DNA from: Candidatus Forterrea multitransposorum CG_2015-17_Forterrea_25_41
Lineage (GTDB): Archaea > Iainarchaeota > Iainarchaeia > Iainarchaeales > CSSED10-239
Assembly: GCA_009392915.1 (NCBI GenBank)
Contig: CP045477.1
Location: forward strand, 1-64,000
Reading direction: 5' to 3'
Length of the DNA: 64,000 nucleotides
Shown here: positions 2,211-55,328 of the stretch, in pieces
How positions within the stretch are numbered: position 1 is the first letter of the stretch
Layout: every line of letters begins with the position of its first letter
Notes under the pieces: model-generated
What the model was told of the DNA's origin: nothing
Databases searched by the model: none
What the model saw: the letters and a program-made list of their open reading frames with translations, nothing else
Program-made: the position numbers and the translations under genes

Positions 2211-5093
2211 TTAATCTAACCTCTCTGTTATTTCTTGCATGACCTCTTCTACAAAGAATTGCAATCCATTATATTTTAATATTTTAATAACTTCTTTATT
2301 TGTTTCTTTTTTAATAAGTTCTGCAAATTGCCCTGTTGCATTTCCTTCAATAACTATTATTTTTTTTGCAGATTTAAGTAAGTCTTTTGTTCCAGGATAA
2401 ATTGGATATAATTGTTCATAATGAAGATATTTTATTTTTTTATTATCTATTTTTTCAACAGCTTCTTTAATTGTTTCAAAAGTACTTCCCCATCCAATAA
2501 TAATTATTTCATTACCTTTTCCAATAATTGTTGGCTTTAAACTTTCAAAAGTTATATCTTCTATTCTTTTTAATCTTTTTTTAACCATTTTAATTCTTAA
2601 AGAAAAATCTTCTGTAATATGTCCTGTTTGGTCATGTTCGTCACTATCCACACAAACTAAACCTTTTCCAAAGCCAGGGATTGCTCTAGGGGAAATTCCA
2701 CTTTCTGTAAAAGCATATCTTTGATAATCTTTTTTACTTTCTATAATATATTTTTCTTTATCTTCTTTTATTTCTATTTTTTCAAAAGGATAAAGATTTT
2801 CCATAAAATATTGATCTGTTAATATAAAAACAGGAATTTGGTATTTTTGAGAATCAATAAAAGCTTTGTTTGTAATCTCTACAGCACTTTTTAAATTTTT
2901 AGGAGCATATACAATTCTTGCAAATTCTCCATGTCCAGCGTGCATAACTAAATTTAAATCTTCTTGAGCTGTTCTTGTTGGAAGTCCAGTTGCAGGTCCT
3001 GGTCTTTGAGCTACATGTATGACTAATGGAGTTTCTATCATTCCTGCAAGGCTTACACCTTCACACATAAGTGCAAATCCTCCACCAGATGTGTTTGTAA
3101 GTGATCTTGCACCTGCAAAAGATGCTCCTAAACACATGTTTATTGCTGAAATTTCATCTTCTGCTTGTTCTACAATAATATCAAAATTTTCTCTTAATTT
3201 TGCTAGATTTTGTAAAACACCTGTTGATGGTGACATTGGGTATGCTGATATAAAATCACACCCTCCAGCAATTGCTCCGTATGCTATTGCTTGAGCACCT
3301 GTAAATAAATTATTTAATTTTATTTGTTTATTTTTTTTAATTTTTGGTAAATTTTTAACTATTTTTAAAATTTCTTTTCCTTTTAAAATACCTTTTTCTG
3401 CTGCTTGAATATTTTTTAAAACAATTTCTTTTCCTTTTTTTGAAAAACTTTCTTTTAGTTGTTTTATAAAATATTTTTTATTAATATTTAGTATTCCTAA
3501 AAGAGTTCCTGTTGCAACAGTGTTTGCAAAAACTTTATTTCCTATTTTTTCTGCAATTTCTTTAAAGGAAACATCAATTGTTTTATTTTTAAGCCCTAAT
3601 TTTCTAACTTCTTCTTTATTTCCAATAATAATTGTATTTTCATCAATTCTTTCTTTTAAATGTTCTATAGTATTTTTATCTAAAGCAAGTAAAATATCTA
3701 TTTTTTTTAAATTTCCTCTTCTTTCTTTTTCTGTAAGTCTAATAGATATGGTGTTAACTCCTCCTCTAACTCTTGACATATATTCAGAGTTTGAAGAAAA
3801 GTAAAAACCTTCTTCTTTAAGTATTTTAAGTAAAACATTTTGAACAGATACAAGACCTTGGCCTGCTTCTCCAGAAAGTACAATTGATAATTCTTTTTCA
3901 TCTATTTTTTTATTTTTAATTTCTTTTTTAAAAAGTTCTTTTGTTTTTTCAGTAATTATCTTTGAAAATTCATTTAATTTTTTAAAGTTTTCTTTTTTAG
4001 GAATTCCTGTTGAAATTTCTCCTAAAATAACTTCTGCTTCAAAATTATTTGTAATATTTTCAAATTCTTTAAAGGCTTCCCCACCCCATTCTTTAGATCC
4101 AATAAATCCAATAATTTTTGTTTTTGGTTTTAATTTATTTAAAGTACTAACTGTTGTTGAAACAATAGGGTGAAGCCCACCTAAAAAAGTAGGAGATGCT
4201 ATAATTAAAGTTGACGCATCTACCATTTCAATTGCAAGTTGTCCTATCTCTGTAGTTGTAAGATTATATTCTTTAACTTTATTGCCTTGGTTAATAAGTT
4301 TAGAAGTTAAATATTCAACCATTTTTTTTGTACTTCCGTGCATAGAAGTATACCCAATAATTATTTTTGGTTTGGTTTCTTTTTTTGACCAATTATAGTA
4401 TTTATCAATTATCCAATCAACATCTTGGTATATTTTTCCATGACTTGGAGCTATTATTTTTGGATTATATTCTTTTATTTTTTCTAAGTTTTTAAGAATA
4501 TAATTTCTAAAAGGCATCATTATTTCTGCATAATATCTTTTAGCAGGTAATTCTATTTCTTTTGTATCTTTAACAAATAATTCGCTTGTTGCAAGATGTG
4601 CTCCAAAAAAATCACAAGAAAACAAAATTTTATCTTCTTTTAAAAAAGTAGACATAGTTTCTGGCCAATGAACCCAAGGAGTATAAATAAATTTTAAGGT
4701 TTTATCTCCTAAGCTAATTTCTTCTAAGTCTTTAATAACTTGTATTCTTTTTTCCTCAATTACCATTTCATCTAAAAGTATTTTTTTACAAAGAGGATTA
4801 CAAATTAATTTTGCTTTTGGAAATTTATTTAAAATTATAGGTATTGATCCAGAGTGATCTTGTTCTGCATGATTAGATATAATATAATCTATATTTTTAA
4901 TATTTAATTTTTCTAAGTTTAAAATAAGTTCTTCTGTTTTTGTAATGTCAACAGTGTCTATTAAAGCTGTTTTTTTAGATCCAATTATTAAGTATGAATT
5001 GTAGCTAGTTCCATCTGGAAGATAGATTAGTTCATCAAAAAGCTTTCTATCCCAATCAATGGCTCCAACTGAATATATGTTTTTCTTAATCAT
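2211..5093 (-). CDS. fusion protein: flavodiiron protein (metallo-beta-lactamase diiron + flavodoxin) joined to OFOR gamma and alpha modules
   Basis: aa 1-240 carry FDP diiron ligands HAEQDH, VHWPE, CDFFGAH, PSHG. aa ~243-390 are flavodoxin-like (GYTSMHGSTKKM). From aa ~401, SGEAGQG marks the OFOR gamma module. From aa ~595, TGAQAIAYGAIAGGCDFISAYPMSPST marks the alpha module. Confidence 0.8.
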   Translation of the reverse strand: MIKKNIYSVGAIDWDRKLFDELIYLPDGTSYNSYLIIGSKKTALIDTVDITKTEELILNLEKLNIKNIDYIISNHAEQDHSGSIPIILNKFPKAKLICNPLCKKILLDEMVIEEKRIQVIKDLEEISLGDKTLKFIYTPWVHWPETMSTFLKEDKILFSCDFFGAHLATSELFVKDTKEIELPAKRYYAEIMMPFRNYILKNLEKIKEYNPKIIAPSHGKIYQDVDWIIDKYYNWSKKETKPKIIIGYTSMHGSTKKMVEYLTSKLINQGNKVKEYNLTTTEIGQLAIEMVDASTLIIASPTFLGGLHPIVSTTVSTLNKLKPKTKIIGFIGSKEWGGEAFKEFENITNNFEAEVILGEISTGIPKKENFKKLNEFSKIITEKTKELFKKEIKNKKIDEKELSIVLSGEAGQGLVSVQNVLLKILKEEGFYFSSNSEYMSRVRGGVNTISIRLTEKERRGNLKKIDILLALDKNTIEHLKERIDENTIIIGNKEEVRKLGLKNKTIDVSFKEIAEKIGNKVFANTVATGTLLGILNINKKYFIKQLKESFSKKGKEIVLKNIQAAEKGILKGKEILKIVKNLPKIKKNKQIKLNNLFTGAQAIAYGAIAGGCDFISAYPMSPSTGVLQNLAKLRENFDIIVEQAEDEISAINMCLGASFAGARSLTNTSGGGFALMCEGVSLAGMIETPLVIHVAQRPGPATGLPTRTAQEDLNLVMHAGHGEFARIVYAPKNLKSAVEITNKAFIDSQKYQIPVFILTDQYFMENLYPFEKIEIKEDKEKYIIESKKDYQRYAFTESGISPRAIPGFGKGLVCVDSDEHDQTGHITEDFSLRIKMVKKRLKRIEDITFESLKPTIIGKGNEIIIIGWGSTFETIKEAVEKIDNKKIKYLHYEQLYPIYPGTKDLLKSAKKIIVIEGNATGQFAELIKKETNKEVIKILKYNGLQFFVEEVMQEITERLD

Positions 5094-5159: not shown

Positions 5160-5912
5160 CTATTCTTGGTCAACTCTTGGTGCTAAGAAATATCTAATAG
5201 CAGAAGAGCCGATTGTGTAATTAATTTCAAGTGGCATATCGTCTTTAAGTTTTAAAGTGATTATGCTTTTTGCATTCTTAATCATATTTTGTAAATAGTC
5301 TAAAGTATACATTGCTTTTGCTTTGCTTCCTGAAATTAAAAGATTATTATCATTTGCTTCAATCTCTTGTTTGAATTTCCCTTTACTACTTTGTGTTTCT
5401 AAATAAAATTTATTATTTTCAACTTTTAAAGTGATATGGGAGCTAAAAAGACTTGCATCTTTTAAACCTGCAAGTAATTGATCAGAAGAGATTTGAACTG
5501 TTACATCAAATTGTATTTTAGGAAGAGGTTGTTCTTGTTCTGATACATCTATTAAAGGGATATGGAAGCTTCTTTTTGATTTTCCAATAAGTTCTATTAA
5601 GATAAATGATTTATCATCTTTAATTTCTAAACTTAATTTATCGTCACTTGATGAGTGGTTTAAGATTTGTAAGAAATTATTTATATTTATTCCAAAAGCA
5701 ATATTTTTTTCATCATCTTTAATATCTACTAAAAATTCTTCAAATGAATCTTTTGGCATTACAAAATCAACTAAACTTATTTGTCCAGGATCTGTTGCTC
5801 TTAAAAACATTTTTTCACTATCGATTGTAAATAAACCTTCGTTTATTAATACTCCAATAGCATCCATACTTTTTTGGAATTCTTTTACATCTTTTATTAT
5901 TAATTTAATCAT
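5160..5912 (-). CDS. pcn: DNA polymerase sliding clamp PCNA
   Basis: 250 aa. The N-terminus MIKLIIKDVKEFQKSMDAIGVLINEG...LRATDPGQISLVDF...FEEF matches the archaeal PCNA pattern. Confidence 0.9.
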   Translation of the reverse strand: MIKLIIKDVKEFQKSMDAIGVLINEGLFTIDSEKMFLRATDPGQISLVDFVMPKDSFEEFLVDIKDDEKNIAFGININNFLQILNHSSSDDKLSLEIKDDKSFILIELIGKSKRSFHIPLIDVSEQEQPLPKIQFDVTVQISSDQLLAGLKDASLFSSHITLKVENNKFYLETQSSKGKFKQEIEANDNNLLISGSKAKAMYTLDYLQNMIKNAKSIITLKLKDDMPLEINYTIGSSAIRYFLAPRVDQE

Positions 5913-23653: not shown

Positions 23654-23699
23654 TATTGTCTAACCTATTTTATTACTAGATAAAGGAGGTTAGACAATA
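23654..23699 (+). promoter_or_regulatory. 13-bp perfect stem-loop occluding the transposase SD and start codon
   Basis: TATTGTCTAACCT (23654-23666) pairs with AGGTTAGACAATA (23687-23699). The right arm covers part of GGAGG and the A of the ATG. Confidence 0.5.
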
Positions 23700-24661
23700 T
23701 GAATATTAAGAACGAAAAGATTAATAAAAGGAACTGGTCAAAGATAAATTATGGAAAAACAAGACAAATCTTGTTTTTACTAGATAAAAACATTATTTTT
23801 AGTGAAAATGAAAGACTAGTTTCCCAAAATAAAAACAAACCAGGAAGACAATTTATATATAGTGATAGAATAATAGAACTATTAATTGATCTTAAAAATT
23901 ATTTTAAATTTGATTATCGTAAACTACAGGCATTCTGCCTGTTGTTTAATAATGTTATAAAAATAAAAACACCTGACTTTACAACTATTTGTAGAAGAAT
24001 GCACAAATTAGAATTATTTCTAAAAAATATAAAAACAAAAAAAGAACCAACCTTTATAGCTATAGATGGTTCTGGACTTCAAACTACTAATCGAGGAGAA
24101 TGGCTTAGATTAATACACAAAAAAGGAAAAATAAACTTAAGAAATGGATTTGTAAAATTAGTGATTGCAACAGATGTTGCATCTGGAGAAATAACTGGAG
24201 TGTATATTTCAGATGATTCTGATTTTGAAAATAAAAGCTTATCAGATTTATTATACCAAACAATAAATAATCAAAACCAAGAAGTCAAAGGACTTCTTGG
24301 AGATGGGGCATACGATTCTTATGATAACTTTGATATGCTTGATGATATGGGAATAAAACCAATTATCAAAATCAGAAAGAATGCAATTACAACAGAACCT
24401 AATGACGATTATTTAAAAAGAAGAAGAAAACTTGGAAAAAAGAAAAAAATAAAAAGAATTGAAGTTGCAAAAAAGCAACTTAAAAATGTAGATGACTGGA
24501 AACAAAAAAATGAGTATAATAAAAGGTGGGTTGTTGAATACACGTTTAGTGTATTCAAAAGACTATTCGGACATAGTGTGTACTCTAAAAGAAAGAAATA
24601 TGTCAAAAATGAAGTAATTTCTAAAGTAAATTTGTATAATAAATTATTAAATATCAATTAA
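23699..24661 (+). CDS. DDE transposase, IS4/IS5 superfamily
   Basis: D (IAIDGSG), D (LLGDGAYDS) and an exact Y-x2-R-x3-E-x6-K signature (YNKRWVVEYTFSVFK). Confidence 0.85.
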   Translation: MNIKNEKINKRNWSKINYGKTRQILFLLDKNIIFSENERLVSQNKNKPGRQFIYSDRIIELLIDLKNYFKFDYRKLQAFCLLFNNVIKIKTPDFTTICRRMHKLELFLKNIKTKKEPTFIAIDGSGLQTTNRGEWLRLIHKKGKINLRNGFVKLVIATDVASGEITGVYISDDSDFENKSLSDLLYQTINNQNQEVKGLLGDGAYDSYDNFDMLDDMGIKPIIKIRKNAITTEPNDDYLKRRRKLGKKKKIKRIEVAKKQLKNVDDWKQKNEYNKRWVVEYTFSVFKRLFGHSVYSKRKKYVKNEVISKVNLYNKLLNIN

Positions 24662-24818: not shown

Positions 24819-26192
24819 ATGGCTATAGACAAAAGATTTTTTTTAGGGATAACTATTAGTAAAAAAAGAAAAGCAATTTCTCCTTTAATTGCCACTATTC
24901 TTTTAATAGTTGTTGCCGTTGCAATTATAGCTATTATTGTTTCCTGGGGAAAAGGATTTACCAATGATTCTTTAAGCAAAGCCTCTGGTCTTGAAATTTA
25001 CACTGAATCAGAAACTTCTTTTTACTTGCAAGTAAAAAATTCAATAAACGGAAGAACTGTTGTTCAATATAATCCTCCTTATAATTCTCCTCACACCTCT
25101 TTAACCATAACAGGTTATAGCCTACATGGTAACACGAATATTAATCCCATAGATCCACCAATTACAATAACTGCAAACCAAACTGCAGTTATTGATCATG
25201 GTATTTTATTTCCAGAATTAAATTTAGTTTTATATTTGGATAATGATCGAATGATTATTAAAACTGATCTTTTACAAACTATTAAATCTCCTCTTTCTTG
25301 TCCAGAAGGTTATGTTTCTGTTCCAGGAAACCACTTATATGGAACTATGAATGAAAGTGGGGGTTTTTGTGTTTCAAAATATGAGATGAAAATGGATAGA
25401 ACAGGAGATGGAATAGGAAATCTTGTAGCTGATTATCCTGATTGTAACACCGGTTCTTTAACATATAATACTTATAGTTATGAATTATGCCCTACACCAG
25501 GCACTTTAGTTTCTACTCCAGAAGGTTCTCCCATAGCAAGAATCACACAAACTGAAAGCATATCAGCCTGTGAAGCTATTGGTGGTCATTTAATAACAAA
25601 TAACGAATGGATGACCATTGTACGAAACATAGAACAAGTTCCATCTAATTGGTCAGGTGGAGCAGTTGGTGATGGCTACCTTCCAAGAGGGAATTCATCT
25701 TCTTCAGGAGCTATGGAAGGCTTTGATCAACTTTCAGGAACTACCAAAAGAACCTTGACCTTAACAAACGGAGAGGTAATTTGGGATTTAGCAGGAAATG
25801 TAAGACAATGGACCAGTGACACTATTCAAAGAAAGGACCAGCCTGATGGTTTTAATAATGTAGATGATAGTAATAATACTTCTGGTTTTAATTGGTTTGA
25901 TTATTTTAAGGGCGGTGGAGTAGATCAATATATTTATTCTGATAATTTAGGTAACACCACCTTAAAGTATAAAGATTTATTTTTATTAACTAGTAATACT
26001 TATAATGCAACAGATAATGGTGTTGGAAGGATTTATACTTATAGTGATTTTAGTGATACTAGTACAACTGAGTACGCGTTTTTGCGCGGTGGTCACTGGG
26101 GCAATGGCACTAATGCCGGGGTCTTGCACCTGGTCTTGAACAAGACTCCTGGGTCCCGGAGCATCCTCATCGGCCTGCGCTGTGTCAAGTAG
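24819..26192 (+). CDS. DGR target protein: archaeal pilin-type class III signal peptide, linker, FGE/C-type-lectin-fold domain with C-terminal variable region
   Basis: N-terminus KKRKAISPLIATILLIVVAVAIIAIIV (DUF1628-like). FGE-sulfatase-like motifs SKYEM, GGHLITNNEW, WDLAGNVRQW, RGGHW and IGLRCVK. The last ~39 codons are the VR matching the TR downstream. Confidence 0.9.
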   Translation: MAIDKRFFLGITISKKRKAISPLIATILLIVVAVAIIAIIVSWGKGFTNDSLSKASGLEIYTESETSFYLQVKNSINGRTVVQYNPPYNSPHTSLTITGYSLHGNTNINPIDPPITITANQTAVIDHGILFPELNLVLYLDNDRMIIKTDLLQTIKSPLSCPEGYVSVPGNHLYGTMNESGGFCVSKYEMKMDRTGDGIGNLVADYPDCNTGSLTYNTYSYELCPTPGTLVSTPEGSPIARITQTESISACEAIGGHLITNNEWMTIVRNIEQVPSNWSGGAVGDGYLPRGNSSSSGAMEGFDQLSGTTKRTLTLTNGEVIWDLAGNVRQWTSDTIQRKDQPDGFNNVDDSNNTSGFNWFDYFKGGGVDQYIYSDNLGNTTLKYKDLFLLTSNTYNATDNGVGRIYTYSDFSDTSTTEYAFLRGGHWGNGTNAGVLHLVLNKTPGSRSILIGLRCVK

Positions 26193-26195
26193 TTT
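26075..26195 (+). repeat. DGR variable repeat (VR)
   Basis: 121 bp aligns without gaps to 27300-27420. There are 13 mismatches, 12 of them at TR adenines. GC-rich compared with its surroundings. Confidence 0.9.
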
Positions 26196-26232
26196 TTAGA
26201 AAAAATATATTTCATCCCCAAACCATGTATTT

Positions 26233-26263
26233 AGACGGGTGAGACGGCAAGACGGCCAGACGG
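26233..26263 (+). repeat. four tandem AGACGG motifs in a GC-rich patch downstream of the VR
   Basis: AGACGGgtgAGACGGcaAGACGGccAGACGG with 9/8/8-bp spacing. No ORF covers it. Confidence 0.6.
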
Positions 26264-26362: not shown

Positions 26363-26396
26363 GCAAATTTTTTTGATTTTTTTCAAAAAAATTTGC
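26363..26396. other. perfect 13-bp inverted repeat (AT-rich hairpin)
   Basis: GCAAATTTTTTTG, an 8-nt loop, then CAAAAAAATTTGC, between the DGR target gene and the first Avd-like gene. Confidence 0.5.
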
Positions 26397-26498: not shown

Positions 26499-26885
26499 AT
26501 GAGTTTAGTTGGAAATGAAAAAGGAATTCTAAATTTTGGTGTTTACAAGGAGCTTTTCCCAATCGTTATTGAAACTTATAATTTTTTAGAAAATAATAAA
26601 TCTTTATTTAAAGTAGATTTTGTTTATACAGATACTGTTAAAAATTTAATAGATATTCTTTCTTTTCTTTCCAAAGGGTATAATAAATTTCATTCTAATG
26701 AAAAATCTTTACTTTACTCTTATTCAAGAGATTGTGTTTCTACAACCCAATCTAATCTTTTAATATTATCTGAACTTAATAAAGATCTCTCAAAAGAAAA
26801 AACCTTATATTTTTATAATCAATTTGAGGATAAAATAAAGTATTTTAATGGTTTAATAAAAAAGATTGAAGAAAATAAAAACTAG
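26499..26885 (+). CDS. divergent four-helix-bundle (Avd-like) protein
   Basis: 128 aa with predicted helical repeats that loosely parallel Avd (VYKELFPIVIETYNFL..., LLILSELNKDL..., YFNGLIKKIE). Positioned directly upstream of avd. Confidence 0.4.
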   Translation: MSLVGNEKGILNFGVYKELFPIVIETYNFLENNKSLFKVDFVYTDTVKNLIDILSFLSKGYNKFHSNEKSLLYSYSRDCVSTTQSNLLILSELNKDLSKEKTLYFYNQFEDKIKYFNGLIKKIEENKN

Positions 26886-26896
26886 GGTATATTATT

Positions 26897-27226
26897 ATGT
26901 TATTTGACTTAAAGTTATATAAAGAAACTTATAACTTTTTACTTTATATTTATCCTGAAATAAATAAATTCCCTAAATCAGATAAATATTCTTTAGGAGA
27001 GGATATTAAAAAAACAACTATTTCTTTAATGTCAAATATTGTTCTTTTTTCAAAGCATAATGAAAATACTTTAAAAGAAGCAGATAAAAACTTAGAATTA
27101 CTAAGAATATATATTAGGCTTTCTTTTGATTTAAAAATAATCTCTTTTAAAAAATATGAGGTTATTTCAAGGCAATTAAATGATATTGGTAATTTATTAG
27201 GTGGTCTTTTAAAACAAAAGATTTAA
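26897..27226 (+). CDS. avd: DGR accessory variability determinant (Avd; four-helix-bundle / 23S rRNA-IVS protein family)
   Basis: LYKETYNFLLYIYPEINKFPKSDKYSLGEDIKKTTISLMSNI matches the family pattern. 109 aa, located between the target gene and the TR. Confidence 0.8.
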   Translation: MLFDLKLYKETYNFLLYIYPEINKFPKSDKYSLGEDIKKTTISLMSNIVLFSKHNENTLKEADKNLELLRIYIRLSFDLKIISFKKYEVISRQLNDIGNLLGGLLKQKI

Positions 27227-27299
27227 ATATTTTTTCAACTAATAGTTATGTTGTTCTTTTAAATAAAAAGAATAGGGCTTTTACAGAAAAAAACAGGTG

Positions 27300-27420
27300 C
27301 GCGTTTTTGCGCGGTGGTAACTGGAACAATGGCACTAATGCCGGGGTCTTGAACCTGAACTTGAACAATACTCCTGGGAACCGGAACAACAACATCGGCC
27401 TGCGCTGTGTCAAGTAGTTT
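27300..27420 (+). repeat. DGR template repeat (TR)
   Basis: Non-coding copy of the VR, rich in AAC/AAT triplets in the VR frame (G N W N N G T N A G V L N L N L N N T P G N R N N N I G L R C V K). Lies 258 bp upstream of the RT gene. Confidence 0.9.
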
Positions 27421-27422
27421 CT

Positions 27423-27445
27423 CCTTATTATTTTTAATAATAAGG
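27423..27445 (+). other. perfect 10-bp stem-loop immediately 3' of the TR
   Basis: CCTTATTATT, loop TTT, then AATAATAAGG, followed by a T-run. Confidence 0.55.
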
Positions 27446-27678
27446 TTTTATCAGAGTTTGTATGTTTATTTTTTTATCTAAAAAAACATATAAAGCGAAT
27501 ATTTTAAAAAACTACATCTGTAAAATGTTTCCTGATTGCACATAATGTGTGCCATAAGAACTATTTTGTTTTTATGTTAAAAAATCAAATATAAAGATAA
27601 GTTATTACATTTAGTATTTTTATAGTCTGTAAAAAGAAATCTGTAATAACTCTTAACTTTAAATAAGGCTTTTTAAAA

Positions 27679-28695
27679 ATGAAATCATACAATAACCTTT
27701 GGCAAGAATTCACTTCTTTTAAAAATATTTTTAATGCCTATAAAAAAGCAAGAAAGTCCACACCAAACAAAAAGTATATCTTGCAATTTACCACAAATTT
27801 AGAAAAGGAGTTATTCTTATTACAAGATCAATTAATTTCAGAAAATTTTCAATTTTCTCCTTACAGAAGTTTTAAAGTTTATGAACCTAAAGAAAGAACA
27901 ATAAGTGCACCTATTTTCAGGGATGTTGTTGTTCAGCATGCCATAATAAACATTATTGAACCTATTTTTGATAAAACCTTTATAGATAACTCTTTTGCTT
28001 GTAGAAAAGGAAAAGGCACACATAAAGGGCTTTTTGAAATTAAAAAAGTAATTCAAACCCCAAATCATCCAAAATACTATTTAAAACAAGATGTAAAGAA
28101 ATACTTTCCTTCAGTTCATAAACCTACCTTAAAAGAAATAATTTTTAAAAGAATTAAGGATGCAAGATTACTTTCTCTAATATATAAAATAATTGATAGT
28201 TATTCTTTTGATTTAAATCAAATTCAAAAAGGTATCCCTATAGGTAATTTAACCTCTCAGTTGTTTGCAAATATTTATTTAAACCATTTAGATCAGTATG
28301 TTAAGCATTCTTTAAAAATTAAACATTATTATAGATATGTAGATGATTTTTTAATATTTTCAAACAATAAAAGAAAATTACATGTTTTTAGAAGAAAAAT
28401 AAAATTATTTTTAAGTAAAGAACTATTATTAGATGTTCCAAAAAATAAAACTTATATAAACTTAGTAAGTAAAGGAGTTGATTTTTTAGGTTATAAGGTA
28501 TTTCCTTCAAACATAAGATTAAGAAAATCAAATCTTAAAAGATTTCTTCTAAGACAAAATAAAAATAACTTTCTTCTAAAAAAAAATCAAATTTCTAAAC
28601 TTAACTATAATTTTTCTCTTTTTTCTTTTTTAGGTTATGCAAAGCATGCAAACTCTTATAATCTCTTAAGTACTTTAAATATTAATGAGTTATAG
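27679..28695 (+). CDS. DGR-type reverse transcriptase
   Basis: RT motifs SAPIFRDVVVQHAI, IPIGNLTSQLFANIYL (DGR-typical [I/L]GxxxSQ) and YVDDFLIF. 338 aa, adjacent to the TR. Confidence 0.9.
   Translation: MKSYNNLWQEFTSFKNIFNAYKKARKSTPNKKYILQFTTNLEKELFLLQDQLISENFQFSPYRSFKVYEPKERTISAPIFRDVVVQHAIINIIEPIFDKTFIDNSFACRKGKGTHKGLFEIKKVIQTPNHPKYYLKQDVKKYFPSVHKPTLKEIIFKRIKDARLLSLIYKIIDSYSFDLNQIQKGIPIGNLTSQLFANIYLNHLDQYVKHSLKIKHYYRYVDDFLIFSNNKRKLHVFRRKIKLFLSKELLLDVPKNKTYINLVSKGVDFLGYKVFPSNIRLRKSNLKRFLLRQNKNNFLLKKNQISKLNYNFSLFSFLGYAKHANSYNLLSTLNINEL
28589..28687 (+). repeat. 99-bp direct repeat, copy 1 (3' end of the RT gene)
   Basis: Identical base for base to 30138-30236. Confidence 0.9.
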
Positions 28696-28838
28696 TTTAT
28701 TTTTATTATGGGCACTTGAGCGTCTATTTTAAACTTAAATTATAATCTTTTACTAACGCACTATACCTTAATTATAATCTTCTATCAAAAGACTATATTT
28801 AAAAATGTTTTTATTATATATTATATTAGTGATAAAAT

Positions 28839-30104
28839 ATGGATAAAGCTTTTTTAAGAAACGTTGTTTCTGACCAGTATGAAGATTTAAAAGATGTTTC
28901 AAAAACAATACAAAGATATGATTCAAAAGAAATAGCGCGCTTTGTAAATAATCCTGCTATATCTATAATTTCAGGAGTAAGGCGTTGTGGTAAGTCCACT
29001 TTTTTAGAGCAGATAATAAATTTATATTATAAAAATAACTTTTATTATTTTGATTTTTCTGATGAAAGAATTGCAAAATTTGAAACTGCTGACTTTCAAA
29101 CATTATATGAGGTGTTTTTAGAAAAATTTGGAAAAAGACAGGCTTTTTTCTTTGATGAAATACAAGGAGTTCCAGAATGGAATAAATTTGTTAATAGAAT
29201 GAAAAAGATTGGGCATAAATGTTTTGTAACCGGTTCAAATTCAAATTTGTTAAGTCAAGAAATATCTACTTATCTAACAGGAAGACATATTGATAAAATC
29301 TTATTCCCTTTTTCCTTTAAAGAATATTTAACGTATAAAAATATTAATGTAGATTTAGATTCTACAAAATCAAGAACCTTAATTATTAAAGAGTTTAAAA
29401 ATTACTTTAAAATAGGTGGTTTTCCAGAGGTTGTTTTAACAAACGATACTTCAATTTTATTAAATATTTATTCTGACATAATTTCTAAAGATATAATTGA
29501 AAGATTTAGGATTAATGATGTTTCTTTATTTAAAGAATTTTGTAATTATGTAATTTCTTTATCTACGAATGAATTTACTTTTAAATCATTAAAAGATAAT
29601 TTTAATATTCAGAATATTACTACTGTTTCAAACTATCTTGATTATCTTAAATTAACTTACCTTGTTTATGAAGTTAAAAGATTTTCTTCTTCATTACAAA
29701 AATTAAATAAATATCCAAAAAAATATTATTGTATAGATAATGGTTTATTAAATAAAGTGGGTTTTGGATATTCAATAGAGGAAACTAGATTTTTAGAAAA
29801 TCAAGTTTTTATTGAACTTTGGAGAAATAATCCGCAATCTGAAATTTATTATTATAGAGATAAGGATAATAAAGAATGTGATTTTTTATTGTTAAATGAT
29901 AGAAAAGTAGTTAAGGCTATTCAAGTGTGTTTTGCTTTTAAAAAGATAGATACTAGAAAAAGAGAAATAGAAGGTTTACTATCTGCTTTAAAAGAGTTTA
30001 ATCTAAATTATGGCGAAATTATTACTTTTGAGCATAAAGAAAAATTAAAGATAGATGGAAAAGTAATAGAGATGATTCCTGTATATGAGTGGTTATTAAA
30101 ATAA
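28839..30104 (+). CDS. AAA-family ATPase (AAA_14 + DUF4143 type)
   Basis: Walker A SGVRRCGKST, Walker B FFFDEIQ; 421 aa. Sits between the two 99-bp repeat copies. Confidence 0.75.
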   Translation: MDKAFLRNVVSDQYEDLKDVSKTIQRYDSKEIARFVNNPAISIISGVRRCGKSTFLEQIINLYYKNNFYYFDFSDERIAKFETADFQTLYEVFLEKFGKRQAFFFDEIQGVPEWNKFVNRMKKIGHKCFVTGSNSNLLSQEISTYLTGRHIDKILFPFSFKEYLTYKNINVDLDSTKSRTLIIKEFKNYFKIGGFPEVVLTNDTSILLNIYSDIISKDIIERFRINDVSLFKEFCNYVISLSTNEFTFKSLKDNFNIQNITTVSNYLDYLKLTYLVYEVKRFSSSLQKLNKYPKKYYCIDNGLLNKVGFGYSIEETRFLENQVFIELWRNNPQSEIYYYRDKDNKECDFLLLNDRKVVKAIQVCFAFKKIDTRKREIEGLLSALKEFNLNYGEIITFEHKEKLKIDGKVIEMIPVYEWLLK

Positions 30105-30137: not shown

Positions 30138-30236
30138 AAATTTCTAAACTTAACTATAATTTTTCTCTTTTTTCTTTTTTAGGTTATGCAAAGCATGCAA
30201 ACTCTTATAATCTCTTAAGTACTTTAAATATTAATG
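30138..30236 (+). repeat. 99-bp direct repeat, copy 2 (orphan duplicate of the RT 3' end)
   Basis: Identical to 28589-28687. It is no longer attached to an RT ORF. Confidence 0.9.
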
Positions 30237-30336
30237 GTTTTATAGTGTAGATTCTCTTTGCATTAAAAATATTGTTTTTGAAAAAAACAAAGCTTTAAAT
30301 TTTGTTTATTTATATAATATATTAGGTGAAAGCAAT

Positions 30337-30549
30337 ATGAAATATAGAGTTTTAATAGAACAAGACGAAGATGGTATCTTTGTTGCTGAATGCCCTAGTC
30401 TTCCAGGTGCAATTTCTCAAGGAAAAACAAGAGAAGAAGCAATAATAAATATTAAAGAAGCCATAAAAGGTTATCTTGAAAGTTTAAAGATAGCTAATGA
30501 ACCAATTCCTTCTCCAATATCTGAAGAAATAATTGATATTTATGGATAA
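30337..30549 (+). CDS. hicB: HicB-family antitoxin (UPF0150)
   Basis: YRVLIEQDEDGIFVAECPSLPGAISQGKTREEAIINIKEAI matches the HicB/UPF0150 pattern. Confidence 0.8.
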   Translation: MKYRVLIEQDEDGIFVAECPSLPGAISQGKTREEAIINIKEAIKGYLESLKIANEPIPSPISEEIIDIYG

Positions 30550-30766
30550 ACTGCCTATTATATCTGGTCAAGATTTAATCAAATTACTTCTAAAATTAGA
30601 TTATCAAGTTCATCATCAAACTGGATCACATATTATCTTAAGACAAAATAAAGAACCTTTTAGAAGATTAACAATTCCAAACCATAAAGAAATTTCAATA
30701 GGGACTTTAAGAGCAATTATAAGGCAAGTTGGAATAACAAGAGAAGAATTTGTTAAATTATTCTAA
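30542..30766 (+). CDS. hicA: HicA-family mRNA interferase toxin
   Basis: SGQDLIKLLLKLDY...QTGSHIILRQ...LTIPNHKEISIGTLRAIIRQ. The ATG overlaps the hicB stop (ATGGATAA). Confidence 0.85.
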   Translation: MDKLPIISGQDLIKLLLKLDYQVHHQTGSHIILRQNKEPFRRLTIPNHKEISIGTLRAIIRQVGITREEFVKLF

Positions 30767-31041
30767 ATTAAATTGTTCTTTTAATTATTATTTTTAATTT
30801 TTTTAAAGTAAAATAAATAATTTTTAACCTAATTTAAATGTTTTTAAGTAATTTATAATATTTTTTTAATTTACTACATAAAAACAAATCTTTTTAAGCA
30901 ATTCGGTCTATAATTATATTATATAAAAAATCTACTTTTATAAATATCCTATTTTTTGCGGCTGTTTTAATTATTAAAAACAGTAGTAGATAGGTTATTG
31001 ATTTTTAGTTTCTATGATTAGAAGACAAGAGGTTAATTAAC

Positions 31042-37617: not shown

Positions 37618-37699
37618 GCAGAGGTGGCGGAGTGGTCAAACGCGCCAGCCTTGAGAGCTGGAGCCTTGCGCTACACGAGTTCGAATCTCGTCCTCTGCG
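37618..37699 (+). tRNA. tRNA-Ser (anticodon UGA)
   Basis: Acceptor GCAGAGG/CCTCTGC. Anticodon stem CCAGC/GCTGG with loop CTTGAGA. Long variable arm and T-loop TTCGAAT. Confidence 0.9.
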
Positions 37700-37730
37700 C
37701 TTTATCTTTTAAAATATAGGAATTTTTATT

Positions 37731-38063
37731 ATGATTAAAGAAAACATTTCTTTTCAAGATTTTTTAAAACTTGATATAAGAATTGGAACAATTGTTGAGG
37801 CTGAAGCTGTTGAGGGTTCTGATAAATTAATAAAATTAATAATTGATTTTAAAGATTTTAAAAGACAGATTTTAGCTGGTATTAAAACAAAATATCAACC
37901 AACTGATTTATTAAACAAACAAATTCCTGTTATTGTAAATTTAGAACCTAGAAAAATGATGGGTTTTGAAAGTCAAGGAATGATCTTAGCTGTTGGAGAT
38001 AAAACTTTAGATGCTTTACTTTTACCATCTGAGCCTGTATCGGAAGGCTCGATTGTACACTAA
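37731..38063 (+). CDS. tRNA-binding domain protein (Trbp111/CsaA/EMAP-like)
   Basis: FLKLDIRIGTIVEAEAVEGSDKLIKLIIDF...GFESQGMILA matches the OB-fold tRNA-binding domain pattern. Confidence 0.8.
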   Translation: MIKENISFQDFLKLDIRIGTIVEAEAVEGSDKLIKLIIDFKDFKRQILAGIKTKYQPTDLLNKQIPVIVNLEPRKMMGFESQGMILAVGDKTLDALLLPSEPVSEGSIVH

Positions 38064-38084
38064 TTTTTTTTTAAAACTAAAAAT

Positions 38085-38166
38085 GCAGAGGTGGCGGAGT
38101 GGTCAAACGCGCAAGCCTGGAAAGCTTGAGCCTCGTGCTACGCGAGTTCGAATCTCGTCCTCTGCG
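38085..38166 (+). tRNA. tRNA-Ser (anticodon GGA)
   Basis: Acceptor, D and T arms are the same as in the first tRNA-Ser. Anticodon stem CAAGC/GCTTG with loop CTGGAAA. Confidence 0.9.
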
Positions 38167-38197
38167 CTTTTTTCTTTTTTAATTTAATATTTATTTT

Positions 38198-38286
38198 GCA
38201 GAGATGGCGGAGTGGTCAAACGCACAAGTTTCGAAAACTTGATTAAGGTTTTTTCCTTTACATGAGTTCAAATCTCATTCTCTGCG
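38198..38286 (+). tRNA. tRNA-Ser (anticodon CGA)
   Basis: Acceptor GCAGAGA/TCTCTGC. Anticodon stem CAAGT/ACTTG with loop TTCGAAA. Long variable arm AAGG-TTTTTT-CCTT and T-loop TTCAAAT. Confidence 0.85.
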
Positions 38287-38462
38287 TAGCTGGTTTCGGT
38301 CAGCTAGCACCCAATGATTTTGCGTTTGTTAACGCTTATTTAAACTTTCTTTTTAAAAGAAGTGATTTTCCCCCAAAACTTTTTTTCTTTAAAAATTGTG
38401 TTTTAAAAATTTTTAATCTATTTTATATCTATTTAAAATACTTTTGCCTCTCTTTAATATTT

Positions 38463-41013: not shown

Positions 41014-44000
41014 ATGTCCGTAGAGAAATATAAAGCAACAAATGATAAAGATTTATTTGATGAAGTAGAATCTTCTAATAGAAAGTATGTTAATGAAGAT
41101 ACTATTAAAGATATTGAAGATAAATTAAAAAAATCAAGAGAAGAACATCCTTTAGAAGATGTTGAAAATTTTTCTGAAATTGATGATTCTGAAGATGATG
41201 ATTCTGAAGATGATGATAACTTAGATGAAGTTGATTTAGAAGAAAACTCTGAAGATGAAAATTCAGAAGATAATAATTCAGAAGATAATAATTCAGAAGA
41301 TAATAATTCAGAAGATAATAATTCAGAAGATAATAATTCAGAAGATAATAATTCAGAAGATAATAATTCTGAAGATAATGATATAGATGAAGCTGATTTA
41401 GAAGAAGACTCTGAAGATAATAATTTAGAAGAAGATAATGTTGAAAAAGACCTAAATGAAATTGATTCTAAAGAATCAGATTTAAAAGAAGATTTTACTA
41501 AAAACTCAAATATATCAAAAGAGATTACTAAAGATAAAGATATACCTGCTAAAAGTTCAGAAATTATAATTAAACCAGCACTTAAATTCTTAGAAGATTT
41601 ACAAGACCCTAATGTAGTTTATTTAGGTAGAAAAAAATCTGTTTTAAAACAATATGGAAAGATAGCTACAGCATATATAGGAAAAGTTGCTGAAAATCAA
41701 CAAGAAGGCAAACAAGTTAACATAGATGGTCTAAATCCACACGTTATTTTCTTAGATGGTGCTAGAGGAACAGGTAAGAGTTATCTTTTAGGGGTAATAG
41801 CAGAAGAGCTTGCAAGAACAAACCCATATATAGGGCAAATAGTAATTGATCCTGTAGGTGTTTTCTGGTCAATGAAATTTCCAAACAGAGATTCAAAAGA
41901 ATTAAAAATTTTAGAAGAATGGGGTTTAAAGGCAGAAGGTCTTAAAAACTTAAAAGTCTTTGTTCCAGAAGGTATAGTTTCTCAAGTTTCAAAAGATACT
42001 TATGATGACACTTTTTCAATGTTTCCTTCTCTTTTAACTCCAGAAGATTGGTGTTTAACTTTTGGTATTGAAAGATTTTCTCCATCAGGCTTACTTTTAG
42101 AAAAAACTTTAGAGTCTGTAAAGAAAGGATATGTTACAGGTGGAACAAAAGATGTTCCTGATGTTAAAAAAATATCAGCAAAAGGAAATCATTTTACTTT
42201 AGAAGATATTATTAACTGTCTTCAAAACAATTCTGAATTTCAATCTTCTCAAAAAGGTTATAAACCAGATTCTATAAGAGCTTTAGTTTCAAGATTTGAA
42301 GCTGCAAGATCTTGGGGTATATTTTCAGATTCTGGAACTCCTCTTTCAAAACTTTCAAGAGAAAATCAATTAACTGTGCTTGATACTTCTTTTTTAGATG
42401 AAAATATTACTGCTTTAGTTATTGGTATTTTAGCTAGAAGAATTCTTTCTGCAAGAAAACTTCTTGCAAGACAAGAAGCTGTTAAAAAATATGGTGATTC
42501 AACACAAAAAGCAGAAGAACTTTTAGAAATTGAAATTCCTCCAACATGGATGTATATTGATGAAGCACACACTTTAATTCCTTCTGGAAATTCTCAAACA
42601 CCAGCAACTGCAGGAATTATAGAGTATGTTAAGCAAGGAAGAAGACCTGGTTGTTCTTTAGTTTTTGCAACACAACAGCCTTCTGCAATAAACACTAAAG
42701 TTTTATCACAAGTTGATATATTAATCTCAAATAAATTAGTTTTTAATGATGATATTTCTGCAATTCAAAAAAGAATGCCTGCAATAATACCAAAGCAATA
42801 TAAAGAACCAAATTTTATAAAGACTTTGCCTTTTGCAACTGCTCTTGTAGGAGATAGATCAGAAGAAACTTCTAGAGCTTTTATTTTAAGAGCAGCACCA
42901 AGAAGATCTCAACATGAAGGTCGTGATGCAGAAACAATTAGAGAGATTCCTAAAAAAAATAAATCTGAAGTTTTAGAAATTGCTTTTAAAATGGTTTATG
43001 AAAAATTAGAAAAAACAAAAGAAATTAAAGTGTCTTTTGCAAAAGATATTTTAGATGTTATTAATATTAAATATAGAGGAACTGTTGAATATGATGAACT
43101 TTTAGAAAAACTTTTAGAAAAAAATGTTTTACTTAAAGAAGATCTTCTATATCTTAATGAAAATTTTTTCAAAGAATATAATCAAGAAGAAAAATTAGTT
43201 TCTAATGATTCCGAAAATACTGATGAAATAAATTCTTTAGATGAAAATGAGCTTGAAAATATTGAAGAAAATTTAGAACATGTTAAAAGTAGTGTTTCAA
43301 AAGTAAAAGTAAGAAATACTATTGCAGAAAGAATTTCAAAAGCAAATATTGAAGAAATTGCAAATCAAAATATTAAAAAATCTTTATTATTTAAACCAAA
43401 AGAAGAAATTTTAAATATTGTTTTAAAATATAGAACAATTTATAAAATAAGTTATAATGTTTATGATTCACAAGATTCTTTTAAGACAAATACTTGTTTT
43501 GTGGATTCTGTAACTGGTGAGTTTATACATTTTTTAAATGGAGAGTTTAAGATTTCTTCTGGTTTAAATGTTTTAGATAAAATTAATGAAGATTATTTAG
43601 AGATTCTTTATCTTTTAAATAAACAACATACTTTGTTTTCTTTAAATCAAGAAACAGATATTGAAGAAAAAGATTTAATTGAAATGATTGATTCTTTTAA
43701 AGAATTAAATTTAATTACTGTTAAAAATAATTCTGGTATAGATGTTTATAAAATAGATTCAAAAGCTTTTGATATTCCTTTTAACCCGACTATTAAAGTT
43801 CTTTCATCTTTAGATGTTTTACCTTTAAAAAAACAAGATGTTGAGTTTTTAGAATCAATAAACTATTCTTTAAATGTTATTCAAGATAATTTAAAGAAAT
43901 TATGGGGTGAAATTGAATTTACTTCTCTTCAAGAAATCTATTGGCCAATTTGGCAAATTACTTATAATAATAAAGAAGGAAATAGAGTTTTAAAAGTAGA

Positions 44001-45328: not shown

Positions 45329-45422
45329 AATTATTTTTTCCTATATCTTTAATATACGATATTACTATCAAAGAGATTATAAATATTTATCTTTATAAAT
45401 GTTTTGGTTTTCTTTTTTATAT

Positions 45423-47465
45423 ATGTATCTTAATAAAAATGCTATTTCTCCATTAATAGCAAGCATTTTAATTATTGTTGTAGTTGTTGCAGTTATTGGT
45501 GTGATTCTATTATGGGGTAAAAACTTTACAAATGAAAGTTTAACTTCCACTTATACTTTTTCACAAGATAAAACTGTTTCTGATTTTGTTTGGCAAGATG
45601 ATATTACTGGTAAAAATCTTTTTATAAAAAACACACATATATCATTAAGTAAAACTATTATTGGTTATAAAATAAACAGTTCCTTAGATTATGCTTATCT
45701 TAATAAATATCATTATCTTGATGAATCTTTTTTATTATCTAAAAATTCCATTGCTCAATTAACTTTAGGTTGTGTTCCAGAAAAGAATTTTTCAATTGAA
45801 CTTTTAACAGACTCTAATGAATATATTTCTTTTCCTGTCACTTCTAAGTTTTTTGATCCTTCAGAATGTACTTTTTCTTTTTCAATAACTTCTCCTTTGG
45901 AAAATTCAATCAATGCTTTAAATTCTAGTATTTCATTTACTTCTGAAATTTTAAATTCTTCAGGTACTCCTTCTTGTACTTGGATTTCTTCAATTGATGG
46001 TACTTTTTCAACATCTTGTGATGCAACTTATTCTTCTTTATCTTCTGGTTCTCATGATATTAATTTAGTTGTTGAAGATTCTGGTGATATTTTAACACAA
46101 TCAACTTCAATTATTGTAAAAGATTCTTTAGAAAGTATTATTTCTACTCCTTCAAATTCATCAAATCATTTATTTAGTGATACAATTTCATTTAGTGGTA
46201 CTGCAGATAATAATTTTGGTTCTCACACTTGTTCTTGGACTTCTTCTTTAGATGGTTCTCTTTCAAGTGATTGTAGTTTTAGTTCTAGTTTATCTCCAGG
46301 CACACATACTATTACTTTACAAGTAACTGATTCTCTTGAAACAGCATCTTCAAATATTTCTATAGATGTTTATGCTTTATTAGTTGCTTCTGTTTCTCTT
46401 CCTGCTAATAATTCTACAAAATCTTTAGGAAGTCCTATCTCTTTTTCATCAAGCATTTCTGGAGGCGATGGATCTTATTCTTGTAGTTGGACAGATAATG
46501 GTTCTCCTTTAAGTTCTAGTTGTTCATTTAGTCATACTTATCCACAAGGAAGTTGGTCTGAATATCAAGATATGCCTCAAGGTAGAGATTATCATGATTG
46601 TGTAGGTGTTGGTGATAAACTATATTGTTTTGGAGGAGATGATTCTACTTATAATGTAGAAAGAACTACTCAAATTTATAATTCTACAACAAATACTTGG
46701 TCTTTAGGTGCAAATATGCCTGCAGATAGAGAGCTTCCAGCATGTAGTTATTATAATGGAATAATTTATTGTATAGGAGGATTTAATAGTTCTTGGGATT
46801 ATGTTAATTCAAATTATGCTTATAATATTTCTACAAATTCTTGGTCTAGTAAAACTTCTATGCCAACAGTAAGAGCTGAACATGATTGTACTGCCTTAGA
46901 TGGAAAAATTTATTGTTTTGGTGGAAATAAAGATGGTGGAGGTGCAAGTAATCTTCTTGAAATATATAATATTTCAACAAATTCTTGGTCAACAGGTACA
47001 AGTTCACCTTCAGGAAAAGCAAATCATAATTGTGAGGGTTTAAATAATAAGGTTTATTGTATTGGTGGTACAACTACTACTTTAATATATGATGTTTTAT
47101 CTGATTCATGGTCTACAGGTACAACTATCTCAACATCAAAATCATCTGGAGCTTCTGATTTATATGGTACTAAAATTTATTATGGAGGAGGTTCTTCTGC
47201 TGCACTTTTAGTTTACGATACTGTTTTAAATAGTTGGTCAACTCTTGCTAGTTTACCTTATTCTAACAGATCTTATATAGGTTGTGGAATTGCAGATAAT
47301 ACTTTTTATTGTGCAGGAGGAGATTCAAGTCAAGGTAGAGAAACATACATGGATAAATTACATGGATATTCTATAGGTGCTACAGGAACACATGAAATTG
47401 AATTAAATGTAAGTGATGGTTATGGTCAAACTGCTTCTAATACAATAAATATTAATGTTCAATAG
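45423..47465 (+). CDS. pilin-signal surface protein with PKD-like repeats and a Kelch beta-propeller
   Basis: N-terminus NAISPLIASILIIVVVVAVIGVILLWGKNFTNESL. Repeats of the form C-x-W...DG...C...G-x-H-x-I-x-L-x-V-x-D. Five to six Kelch-like blades (YCFGG/YCIGG...W). Confidence 0.7.
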   Translation: MYLNKNAISPLIASILIIVVVVAVIGVILLWGKNFTNESLTSTYTFSQDKTVSDFVWQDDITGKNLFIKNTHISLSKTIIGYKINSSLDYAYLNKYHYLDESFLLSKNSIAQLTLGCVPEKNFSIELLTDSNEYISFPVTSKFFDPSECTFSFSITSPLENSINALNSSISFTSEILNSSGTPSCTWISSIDGTFSTSCDATYSSLSSGSHDINLVVEDSGDILTQSTSIIVKDSLESIISTPSNSSNHLFSDTISFSGTADNNFGSHTCSWTSSLDGSLSSDCSFSSSLSPGTHTITLQVTDSLETASSNISIDVYALLVASVSLPANNSTKSLGSPISFSSSISGGDGSYSCSWTDNGSPLSSSCSFSHTYPQGSWSEYQDMPQGRDYHDCVGVGDKLYCFGGDDSTYNVERTTQIYNSTTNTWSLGANMPADRELPACSYYNGIIYCIGGFNSSWDYVNSNYAYNISTNSWSSKTSMPTVRAEHDCTALDGKIYCFGGNKDGGGASNLLEIYNISTNSWSTGTSSPSGKANHNCEGLNNKVYCIGGTTTTLIYDVLSDSWSTGTTISTSKSSGASDLYGTKIYYGGGSSAALLVYDTVLNSWSTLASLPYSNRSYIGCGIADNTFYCAGGDSSQGRETYMDKLHGYSIGATGTHEIELNVSDGYGQTASNTININVQ

Positions 47466-55210: not shown

Positions 55211-55328
55211 TGTTAGCGGCCATAGGGATGGAGAAACACCTGGACCCTTTCCGAACCCAGAAGTTAAGTCTATTGCCGTTTTAGTTCGCTGTTAGTTCAT
55301 GCTAGTAGCGTCTTTAAAGCTGCTAACA
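55211..55328 (+). rRNA. rrf: 5S ribosomal RNA (orphan, not linked to 16S/23S)
   Basis: GCGGCCATAGG...CCGAACCCAGAAGTTAAG core. Terminal helix TGTTAGCGGC/GCTGCTAACA. Confidence 0.85.

Follow-up and report, generated by a model that had tools for sequence, protein, structure and literature searches.

The stretch examined here is a 64-kb window, positions 1 to 64,000 of the forward strand of contig CP045477.1 from Candidatus Forterrea multitransposorum, and our subject is a gene within it whose 3′ end, the 121-nt segment at 26075-26195, has a second, similar copy at 27300-27420. We read the first copy as the variable repeat (VR) of a chromosomal diversity-generating retroelement (DGR) in a DPANN archaeon and the second as its template repeat (TR); including the mechanism and the pilus-adhesin role proposed below, we place this reading at a probability of about 0.93. 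The cassette is complete and co-directional, in the order target-avd2-avd-TR-spacer-reverse transcriptase (RT), and comprises the following parts, among them a 3′ segment resembling a site for the initiation of mutagenic homing (IMH).

24819-26192, forward strand: DGR target (variable protein), 457 aa, with a pilin N-terminus, a beta-sandwich stalk and a C-terminal C-type lectin (CLec)/FGE-sulfatase fold that contains the VR
26075-26195, forward strand: VR, made up of the last 39 codons of the target gene, its stop codon and 3 nt
26094-26169, forward strand: mutagenised zone of the VR
26168-26195, forward strand: IMH-like 3′ segment of the VR, ATCGGCCTGCGCTGTGTCAAGTAGTTT, equal to the TR 3′ end at 27393-27420
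26499-26885, forward strand: avd2, 128 aa, pI 7.7, predicted to be a divergent Avd-like four-helix bundle, directly 5′ of avd in all relatives examined
26897-27226, forward strand: avd, 109 aa, pI 9.35, matching NF033474 (DivGenRetAVD) at 92.4 bits against a cut-off of 80 and PF22296 (bAvd) at E 2e-21
27300-27420, forward strand: TR, with 30 adenines, the same in all assemblies
27414-27678, forward strand: structured DGR RNA of the TR-to-RT spacer (258 nt), whose helix 1 reaches into the TR 3′ end
27679-28695, forward strand: RT, 338 aa, with IGNLTSQ at residue 188 and YVDD at residue 220

Adenine-biased substitutions between the two repeats

The first-pass annotation had described a gap-free 121-bp alignment of the two copies with 13 mismatches, 12 of them at TR adenines, and direct re-alignment returned exactly this picture; both translations that it quoted in the VR frame are likewise correct. 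The 12 substitutions at adenines (four A to C, four A to G and four A to T) all change the first or second base of an AAC codon, as read in the open reading frame (ORF) that ends at 26192. The remaining mismatch is a T-to-G change (TR 27369, VR 26144) at codon position 3, by which AAT becomes AAG and asparagine becomes lysine. With 30 adenines among the 121 nt of the TR, the hypergeometric probability of at least 12 of 13 mismatches falling at A is 8e-8. Nine AAC and three AAT codons are found in the TR, and all 30 of its adenines lie at codon positions 1 or 2 of the VR frame; since TR adenines occupy these positions only, up to ~14 residues on the modelled ligand-binding face of the lectin fold could be randomised without creating stop codons.

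The repeat has a GC content of 51%, compared with 24.6% for the genome and the window. VR and TR match fully at both ends, over 19 nt at the start and 28 nt at the finish, as had been noted earlier. The 3 adenines of the last 28 nt are unchanged in every allele described below, as an IMH-like anchor predicts, and the GC-rich block of this segment is kept in relatives; both the suggestion of an IMH-like invariant 3′ end and the remark that no IMH/IMH* difference is visible inside the repeat therefore hold, the 3′ 28 nt being identical in the two copies. Homology between TR and VR stops after TAGTTT. BLAST and a repeat search lengthen the repeat by 3 nt, to 26072 and 27297, and add one A/G mismatch that probably lies outside the functional repeat. 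The pair is the sole copy pair within the window, and neither another VR nor a remote target turned up when the window was searched for them.

A more ordinary origin has to be weighed against these numbers, namely the divergence of a duplicated 121-bp segment in the absence of retroelement activity, with the A bias a coincidence of composition or selection. Such an origin would accommodate the single TR/VR pair of the window, the one non-A mismatch and a TR copy that is non-coding and could be a decayed gene fragment, but not the magnitude of the bias (P 8e-8) or the Avd and bRT-like RT genes that adjoin the repeat. Relatives of the cassette bear on the same question. The order target-avd2-avd-TR-RT is kept in relatives down to 52% RT identity, and in L010 the cassette occupies the same chromosomal place, between Hel308/UPF0175 and FKBP/proteasome genes. 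The TR/VR mismatches of these relatives are distributed as follows.

L010: 16 of 16 mismatches at A
L014/L015: 14 of 14 mismatches at A
L025/L026: 13 mismatches at A and one at T (a synonymous T to C)
L027: 18 mismatches at A and one edge mismatch

Pooled over six TR/VR pairs of the RT lineage, 89 of 94 substitutions are at A. Partial VRs that accompany the same RT in different samples (L016 versus L018; L027 versus L028) differ from the TR at A only. Ordinary duplicated segments at the same loci served as a negative control and mismatch over all four bases, with 9, 9, 7 and 11 mismatches at A, C, G and T, respectively. Six lineages that have the same architecture and the same bias are thus hard to reconcile with duplication followed by ordinary divergence, and the natural alleles of the window's own locus argue in the same direction.

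An invariant template and a variable repeat in natural populations

An RT protein identical to that of the window is present in many independent public assemblies (64 index blocks). Alleles of the locus were gathered by exact-protein look-ups and from cluster members, and are assembled consensus sequences. The TR is identical in 12 assemblies and at every locus fetched, while the VR has three alleles.

P0001, the window allele: 14 contigs; differs from the TR at 12 A and 1 T
P0003: 4 contigs; the window allele with one more A-to-T change (N432Y)
P0002: at least 11 contigs; differs from the TR at 16 A and 3 C, 19 in total

All protein differences between alleles fall within residues 426-451 of 457. 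Over 10.1 kb, 18 of the 22 nucleotide differences between the window and an assembly with P0002 (L005) lie inside the 121-nt VR, and assemblies with differing VRs are otherwise 99.8-100% identical. The allele P0002 is DNA-identical in 7 assemblies from different samples, and its three C-site changes are therefore real. Both major alleles occur in JGI sample 3300025844, where contigs break at the VR. The mutable zone has 27 adenines, of which each allele has ~44-59% altered, a proportion that matches the ~52% misincorporation of the Bordetella RT-Avd complex (bRT-Avd; PMC7826257). The assignment of 27300-27420 as the template, first made from the window alone, gains support from this comparison: the TR is the same in every independent assembly and the VR varies, and Avd and a DGR-type RT flank the TR. 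Counting substitutions by TR base in independent VR alleles likewise bears out the adenine specificity, with 16 of 19 at A in P0002 and 16/16, 14/14, 13/14 and 18/18-19 in the relatives; the even spread over four TR bases that the first-pass annotation had named as the mark of ordinary divergence is seen neither in P0002 nor in the relatives. Together with a TR that stays invariant while 18 of 22 differences between near-identical assemblies collect in the VR, these counts effectively refute ordinary divergence of a duplicated segment, which we regard as vanishingly improbable.

Several side observations accompany the allele survey. The contigs L008, L011, L012, L013, L016, L018, L027 and L028, from this organism and from related lineages, begin or end inside or just past the VR, the pattern expected from within-sample VR heterogeneity. 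Outside the VR, L005 and the window differ over 10 kb only at a cluster of four single-nucleotide polymorphisms and one 1-nt indel (30946-30996), located in the hairpin-bearing intergenic DNA that separates hicA from the FKBP gene. When metagenome DNA was scanned with the VR-specific anchor GARTACGCGTTTYTGCGCGGTGGT, the one match (L009) was GC-rich, unrelated and due to chance.

Judged by this natural allele variation, the DGR has evidently been active recently. The competing view is that it is a fossil, its alleles made in the past and the element inactive in the sampled populations. Three alleles are all that ~30 contigs yield, and each is DNA-clonal across samples; the close relative L001 seems to have lost avd2, avd and the TR; and the cassette has insertions beside it, namely an IS5 element and an ATPase/HicBA block. 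Set against this, no ORF is disrupted, the RT has its catalytic motifs and the TR remains fully A-rich. The flanks differ at almost no site and the VRs at 18, which places the events in the very recent past; two alleles coexist in one sample, and breaks of the assembly at the VR recur across several samples and lineages, as within-sample heterogeneity predicts. Consensus assembly, moreover, under-reports minor alleles. An element that is already inactive is accordingly very unlikely, and we retain a DGR that has diversified its target in recent time.

The alleles P0001 and P0003 have all 13 substitutions in common and differ only at 26112 (TR 27337; A versus T, N432Y), where the T of P0003 is also found in the unrelated allele P0002. 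Short-patch conversion, recombination between alleles or point mutation are possible sources of this single-site difference.

The T-to-G mismatch had been singled out as lying outside canonical A-mutagenesis. The change is real, and its site is polymorphic, with K (AAG) in two alleles and S (AGT, the T kept) in P0002; its weight as an exception did not hold up, since such changes are known and fairly common DGR variation. Non-A-to-N substitutions occur in 23% of 372 curated DGRs, roughly a quarter, and are frequent and often multiple in the set from the Candidate Phyla Radiation (CPR) and DPANN (PMC5758913), and Paul et al. tolerate up to 2 non-A mismatches per 100 bp (PMC4372165). Two sources were rejected. 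A mutation of the TR fails because the TR is invariant, the AAT codon at this site is kept in related TRs (L010, L012/L014) and P0002 retains the T; with an invariant TR and a conserved AAT, the G must have arisen on the VR side. Assembly or sequencing error fails as a source of the non-A changes because the window allele stands on 14 contigs and P0002 is DNA-identical in 7 assemblies.

Between P0001 and P0002, non-A differences affect 4 of 91 non-A VR sites and 4 of 9977 flank sites, a 115-fold enrichment (Fisher P 4e-7); non-A changes, as a class, therefore travel with diversification and not with background mutation. The T-to-G change is the sole non-synonymous one among them, the three of P0002 and the one of L025 all being synonymous. 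We propose that it is a low-frequency non-adenine error of reverse transcription or of the integration of complementary DNA (cDNA), although a single event is not assignable with certainty. It might instead be a spontaneous point mutation of the VR after homing, apart from the retroelement machinery and possibly selected for lysine. Lysine is unreachable from AAT by adenine changes alone, the change is the only non-synonymous non-A one observed, and the K allele is the most widely sampled (14 + 4 contigs); Wu et al. also list independent mutation as one possible origin of non-A differences (PMC5758913). Yet the background between populations is ~4 changes per 10 kb, and 4 non-A differences in 91 sites exceed it by the factor given above. 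Spontaneous mutation is unlikely on this count, and an error made in the course of diversification is preferred.

Proteins, spacer RNA and genomic setting of the cassette

The target is, by its sequence and its predicted structure, a type IV pilin-like surface protein with an archaeal class III signal. TIGR02537 (arch_flag_Nterm) matches residues 17-47 at 24.1 bits (cut-off 20), a helix is predicted at 22-53, and the N-terminus resembles the archaeal type IV pilus subunit of Pyrobaculum (8fk7; phmmer E 1.4e-3, Foldseek E 9e-4). Further along, PF03781 (FGE-sulfatase) matches at 29.5 bits against a cut-off of 23.3. The AlphaFold2 (AF2) model has a predicted local distance difference test (pLDDT) score of 88.8, and Foldseek ranks two DGR variable proteins highest, TaqVP (5vf4, E 3e-9) and Mtd (1yu0-4), with FGE after them. 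TaqVP is thus the best structural match to the predicted target, and at the sequence level the two have in common the VR motif RGGxWxxGxxAG...G.R; TaqVP lacks the pilin N-terminus, and the overall template modelling (TM) score is only 0.32-0.41 because the N-terminal halves differ.

Two observations touch on this pilin-type anchor. A 688-aa surface protein at 45399-47465 has the same pilin-type N-terminus, KNAISPLIASILIIVVVVAV, followed by what appear by eye to be PKD-like and Kelch-like repeats, and lacks a VR; several adhesin-like proteins seem to draw on this pilin N-terminal module. In bacteria, homologues of the variable domain (P0232, P0234, P0241, P0242) possess the bacterial type IV pilin motif PF07963 (N_methyl) where the archaeal protein has its class III signal, and a lectin-type domain on a pilin anchor is therefore found in both domains of life.

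By sequence comparison, the RT is of the DGR type. It matches PF00078 at E 1.5e-21, and its best solved relative is the Bordetella bRT (8ub7_A; E 3.7e-54, 188 bits, full length), whereas a group II intron RT reaches E 1.8e-22. Homologues of the RT number roughly 6,900, and thousands belong to metagenome-assembled genomes of Aenigmarchaeota, Pacearchaeota, Nanoarchaeota and 'ainarchaeum'. A search of genome contigs with the RT found one true relative (L001); a distant Legionella RT (L002) was left out.

The protein encoded by avd2 is less basic than Avd (pI 7.7 versus 9.35). No Pfam or NCBIfam match was found for the window protein, even at E<=1, and a PDB profile search with it returned no matches; PF05635, the Avd superfamily, is found in 5 of 8 avd2 orthologues (best E 1e-6). 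Its AF2 model is a four-helix bundle (pLDDT 84), for which the best Foldseek matches are 2rld/2gsc of the S23-IVP pentamer family (TM 0.70-0.82), followed by Avd (8ub7/4dwl), with E values of only ~0.02. An alignment of avd2 with Avd by hhalign is weak (E 0.036). Two avd genes were reported in just 1 of 372 DGRs by Wu et al. (PMC5758913).

The non-coding parts of the cassette contain several structured or repeated elements.

27414-27422 with 27507-27515, forward strand: predicted helix 1 of the spacer RNA, which would pair the TR 3′ end (GTAGTTTCT) with the invariant block AAAAACTAC
27423-27445, and 27457-27466 with 27485-27494, forward strand: spacer hairpins
27599-27609 with 27642-27652, forward strand: long stem of the spacer
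27253-27273, forward strand: hairpin TTCTTTT/AAAAGAA 5′ of the TR, then the conserved block AGGGCTTTTACAG; recognised by eye, with a stem that varies by lineage
~26198-26232, forward strand: conserved AT-rich, TATA-like block before the tandem array
26233-26263, forward strand: tandem array of four AGACGG units with a period of 8-9 nt
26363-26396, forward strand: 14-bp AT-rich palindrome GCAAATTTTTTTGA/TCAAAAAAATTTGC, the only stem to survive in the centroid fold

RNAalifold applied to the spacers of 6 lineages returned seven helices with 56 pairs, 20 of which have compensatory changes. In this fold 93% of cells are paired, compared with 44-54% when the partners are slid, and none of 500 shuffles matches the observed values. 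In Bordetella, pairing between TR and spacer (TR-Sp) positions the priming adenosine and is needed for priming (PMC6182149), and this pairing resembles helix 1. Rfam, queried at its gathering threshold and at E<=1, holds no family that matches the TR flanks or the spacer.

The AGACGG array is the only one in the window (0.07 expected from shuffles). Its position between VR and avd2 is kept in relatives, with 3-4 heptamer or octamer units at a period of 7-9 nt and with units that differ by lineage.

L010, 5558-5588: AGACGG, as in the window
L014, 2786-2805: TATCGG
L016, 101-129: TATCGG
L025, ~4770-4795: TATCTG
L027, ~305-335: TGCCGCT

No stretch of the cassette was found to be complementary to the AGACGG array; a promoter or operator, or a mark of the recipient or target site, are candidate roles. 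A hairpin of variable sequence stands in relatives at the relative position of the palindrome. A GC cruciform or hairpin of the BPP-1 type adjoining the VR is absent from the window and present only in the L016/L018 lineage. A scan for sigma-70 promoters and terminators was uninformative (26 sites versus 25 expected), a bacterial model being applied to an archaeal host.

The host genes of the window are archaeal, with a proteasome beta subunit, aCPSF1, a Hel308-like helicase and TruD among them. The closest named genomes are labelled Ca. 'ainarchaeum' sp., a name that we take, as an unconfirmed equivalence, to denote Iainarchaeota, a DPANN group. One of them, Ca. 'ainarchaeum' sp. STF1_257 (L001, JAQVRT010000019.1), has at 5575-5700 apparently lost avd2, avd and TR; this state reflects either a deletion by VR/TR recombination that disabled the DGR or an assembly collapse at ~5x coverage. 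Directly 5′ of the window's target gene, at 23699-24661, lies an IS5-family transposase gene (NF033579, 195 bits) that is absent in L010 and L001, and several assemblies break beside it, ~200 nt 5′ of the target. At the other flank the 3′ end of the RT gene is duplicated (28589-28696 and 30138-30246), with 99 nt repeated perfectly in direct orientation and, over 109 nt, 2 mismatches and 1 gap; these copies bracket an AAA_14/DUF4143 ATPase gene (28839-30104). The syntenic relatives L010 and L001 have neither the ATPase gene nor the HicB/HicA pair (30337-30766), a distribution that suggests a recent insertion of the ATPase-HicBA block, perhaps by single-crossover integration via the shared segment.

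An 839,632-bp public contig that carries the window's target also has a paralogue of the target (P0167, 47% identity) and one of avd2 (P0248, GW776_00835, 80% identity), which points to a second DGR cassette elsewhere in the genome. Farther along the window lie three tRNA-Ser genes (TGA, GGA, CGA) within 670 nt at 37618-38287, a 15-nt tandem repeat (~12 overlapping 96-nt register copies) at 41167-41439 and a 5S rRNA gene at 55212-55328.

Proposed mechanism and relation to known elements

By analogy with the Bordetella phage DGR, a working model for the cassette can be put forward. A transcript covering avd2, avd, the TR and the spacer, and possibly the RT gene, would fold back on itself and join GTAGTTT, at the 3′ end of the TR, to a conserved ACTAC block that lies ~95 nt further 3′. 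With Avd, and probably with the putative Avd paralogue, the RT would prime itself at helix 1, at a site predicted near 27505-27516, and copy the TR into cDNA, misincorporating at about half of the template adenines during cDNA synthesis. The mutagenised cDNA would then overwrite the homologous VR, 121 nt long, at the target gene's 3′ end, with the GC-rich invariant 3′ block as a putative IMH-like homing anchor. In such a scheme the T-to-G change would be a by-product of the same process and would call for neither a separate mechanism nor a change in the TR.

Six points weigh against this account as it stands. i) In the NCBIfam scan of the RT, no DGR-RT-specific model matched, the best being a group II intron RT model below its cut-off. 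ii) Recent activity is deduced from assembled consensus alleles, and from three of them only. iii) Replacement of the whole VR does not predict the single-site difference between P0001 and P0003. iv) Non-A changes, at 1-3 per 91 sites per allele, are at or above the rate of bRT-Avd, which misincorporates at ~52% of adenines and at 0.3-1.6% of U, C and G (PMC7826257). v) Helix 1 is almost invariant, such that covariation backs one of its pairs only. vi) With IMH equal to IMH* and no GC-rich cruciform at the VR, there is no visible basis for the choice of the recipient. As to the last point, some DGRs have an IMH equal to their IMH*, and just 34% possess a GC inverted repeat (Wu et al., PMC5758913), so that IMH/IMH* asymmetry and the inverted repeat are not a universal DGR requirement.

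The cassette might also represent a sub-lineage with modified machinery and recognition. Here the pair of Avd paralogues, possibly as a hetero-oligomer, would act as the RT cofactor; the array and the hairpin would mark the recipient or control the transcript, in place of IMH/IMH* asymmetry and a GC cruciform; and the cDNA would sometimes be integrated in short patches. The short patches are suggested by the one adenine site at which P0001 and P0003 differ and by the elevated non-A changes. We consider such a departure quite unlikely.

The DGR of Bordetella phage BPP-1 (mtd-avd-TR-brt) resembles the present cassette in its target-avd-TR-RT order, its Avd family and an RT with an I/V/L-GxxxSQ motif. 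In both, the VR lies at the 3′ end of the gene for a CLec-fold protein, with Mtd among the top fold matches of the target. An AAC-rich TR, ~50% of adenines changed, a GC-rich invariant 3′ block and a likely TR-spacer pairing complete the likeness. The present element differs in residing on a cellular archaeal chromosome and not in a phage, and in diversifying a pilin-anchored surface protein and not a tail-fibre tip. It differs further in its identical IMH and IMH*, the lack of a GC cruciform by the VR, the extra, putative Avd paralogue and the conserved tandem array 3′ of the VR.

DGRs of this kind are already well documented in DPANN and CPR. As in those sets (PMC4372165, PMC5758913, PMC8144416), the element belongs to an ultrasmall groundwater archaeon, is chromosomal and has a single adjacent target, which is of the CLec/FGE type; frequent non-A-to-N substitutions and a poorly distinguishable IMH/IMH* are also common ground. 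In the CPR set, 90% have architecture B3 with avd on the opposite strand (Wu et al., PMC5758913), whereas all genes here are co-directional (B1-like) and the tandem avd2-avd is conserved across the sub-lineage. In the nanoarchaeal DGRs of DUSEL4 the IMH (TGGGGT) differs from the IMH* (TGGAAT), and the gene that they target contains a GRA-loop hairpin (PMC4372165); neither trait is seen here. Modestly novel, as leads only, are the putative Avd paralogue with its conservation, the folded RNA of the spacer, the tandem array 3′ of the VR and the one-site allele difference. A parallel for the target comes from Bacteroides, for which a preprint (bioRxiv 10.1101/2024.11.15.621889) reports DGRs on type V pilus tip adhesins; as in the role proposed here, a DGR diversifies the adhesive component of a pilus. 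That case concerns a bacterial type V pilus, the bacterial domain and another RT clade, compared with an archaeal type IV-like class III signal in the window.

Taken together, the locus offers a clean natural archaeal DGR, in which the template is invariant and three VR alleles, two of them coexisting in one groundwater sample, occur on an essentially identical chromosome. Its compact and conserved sub-lineage combines Avd and a putative paralogue with a spacer RNA backed by covariation, lacks IMH/IMH* asymmetry, and may be a useful model of cDNA priming and target choice by archaeal DGRs. With a type IV pilin-like surface protein as its target, the system most likely varies a pilus-displayed adhesin by which the ultrasmall episymbiont may bind hosts or other ligands. 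The pilin-signal anchor of the diversified protein thus supports the idea that DPANN episymbionts may re-tune their pilus-displayed host-contact adhesins by way of DGRs.

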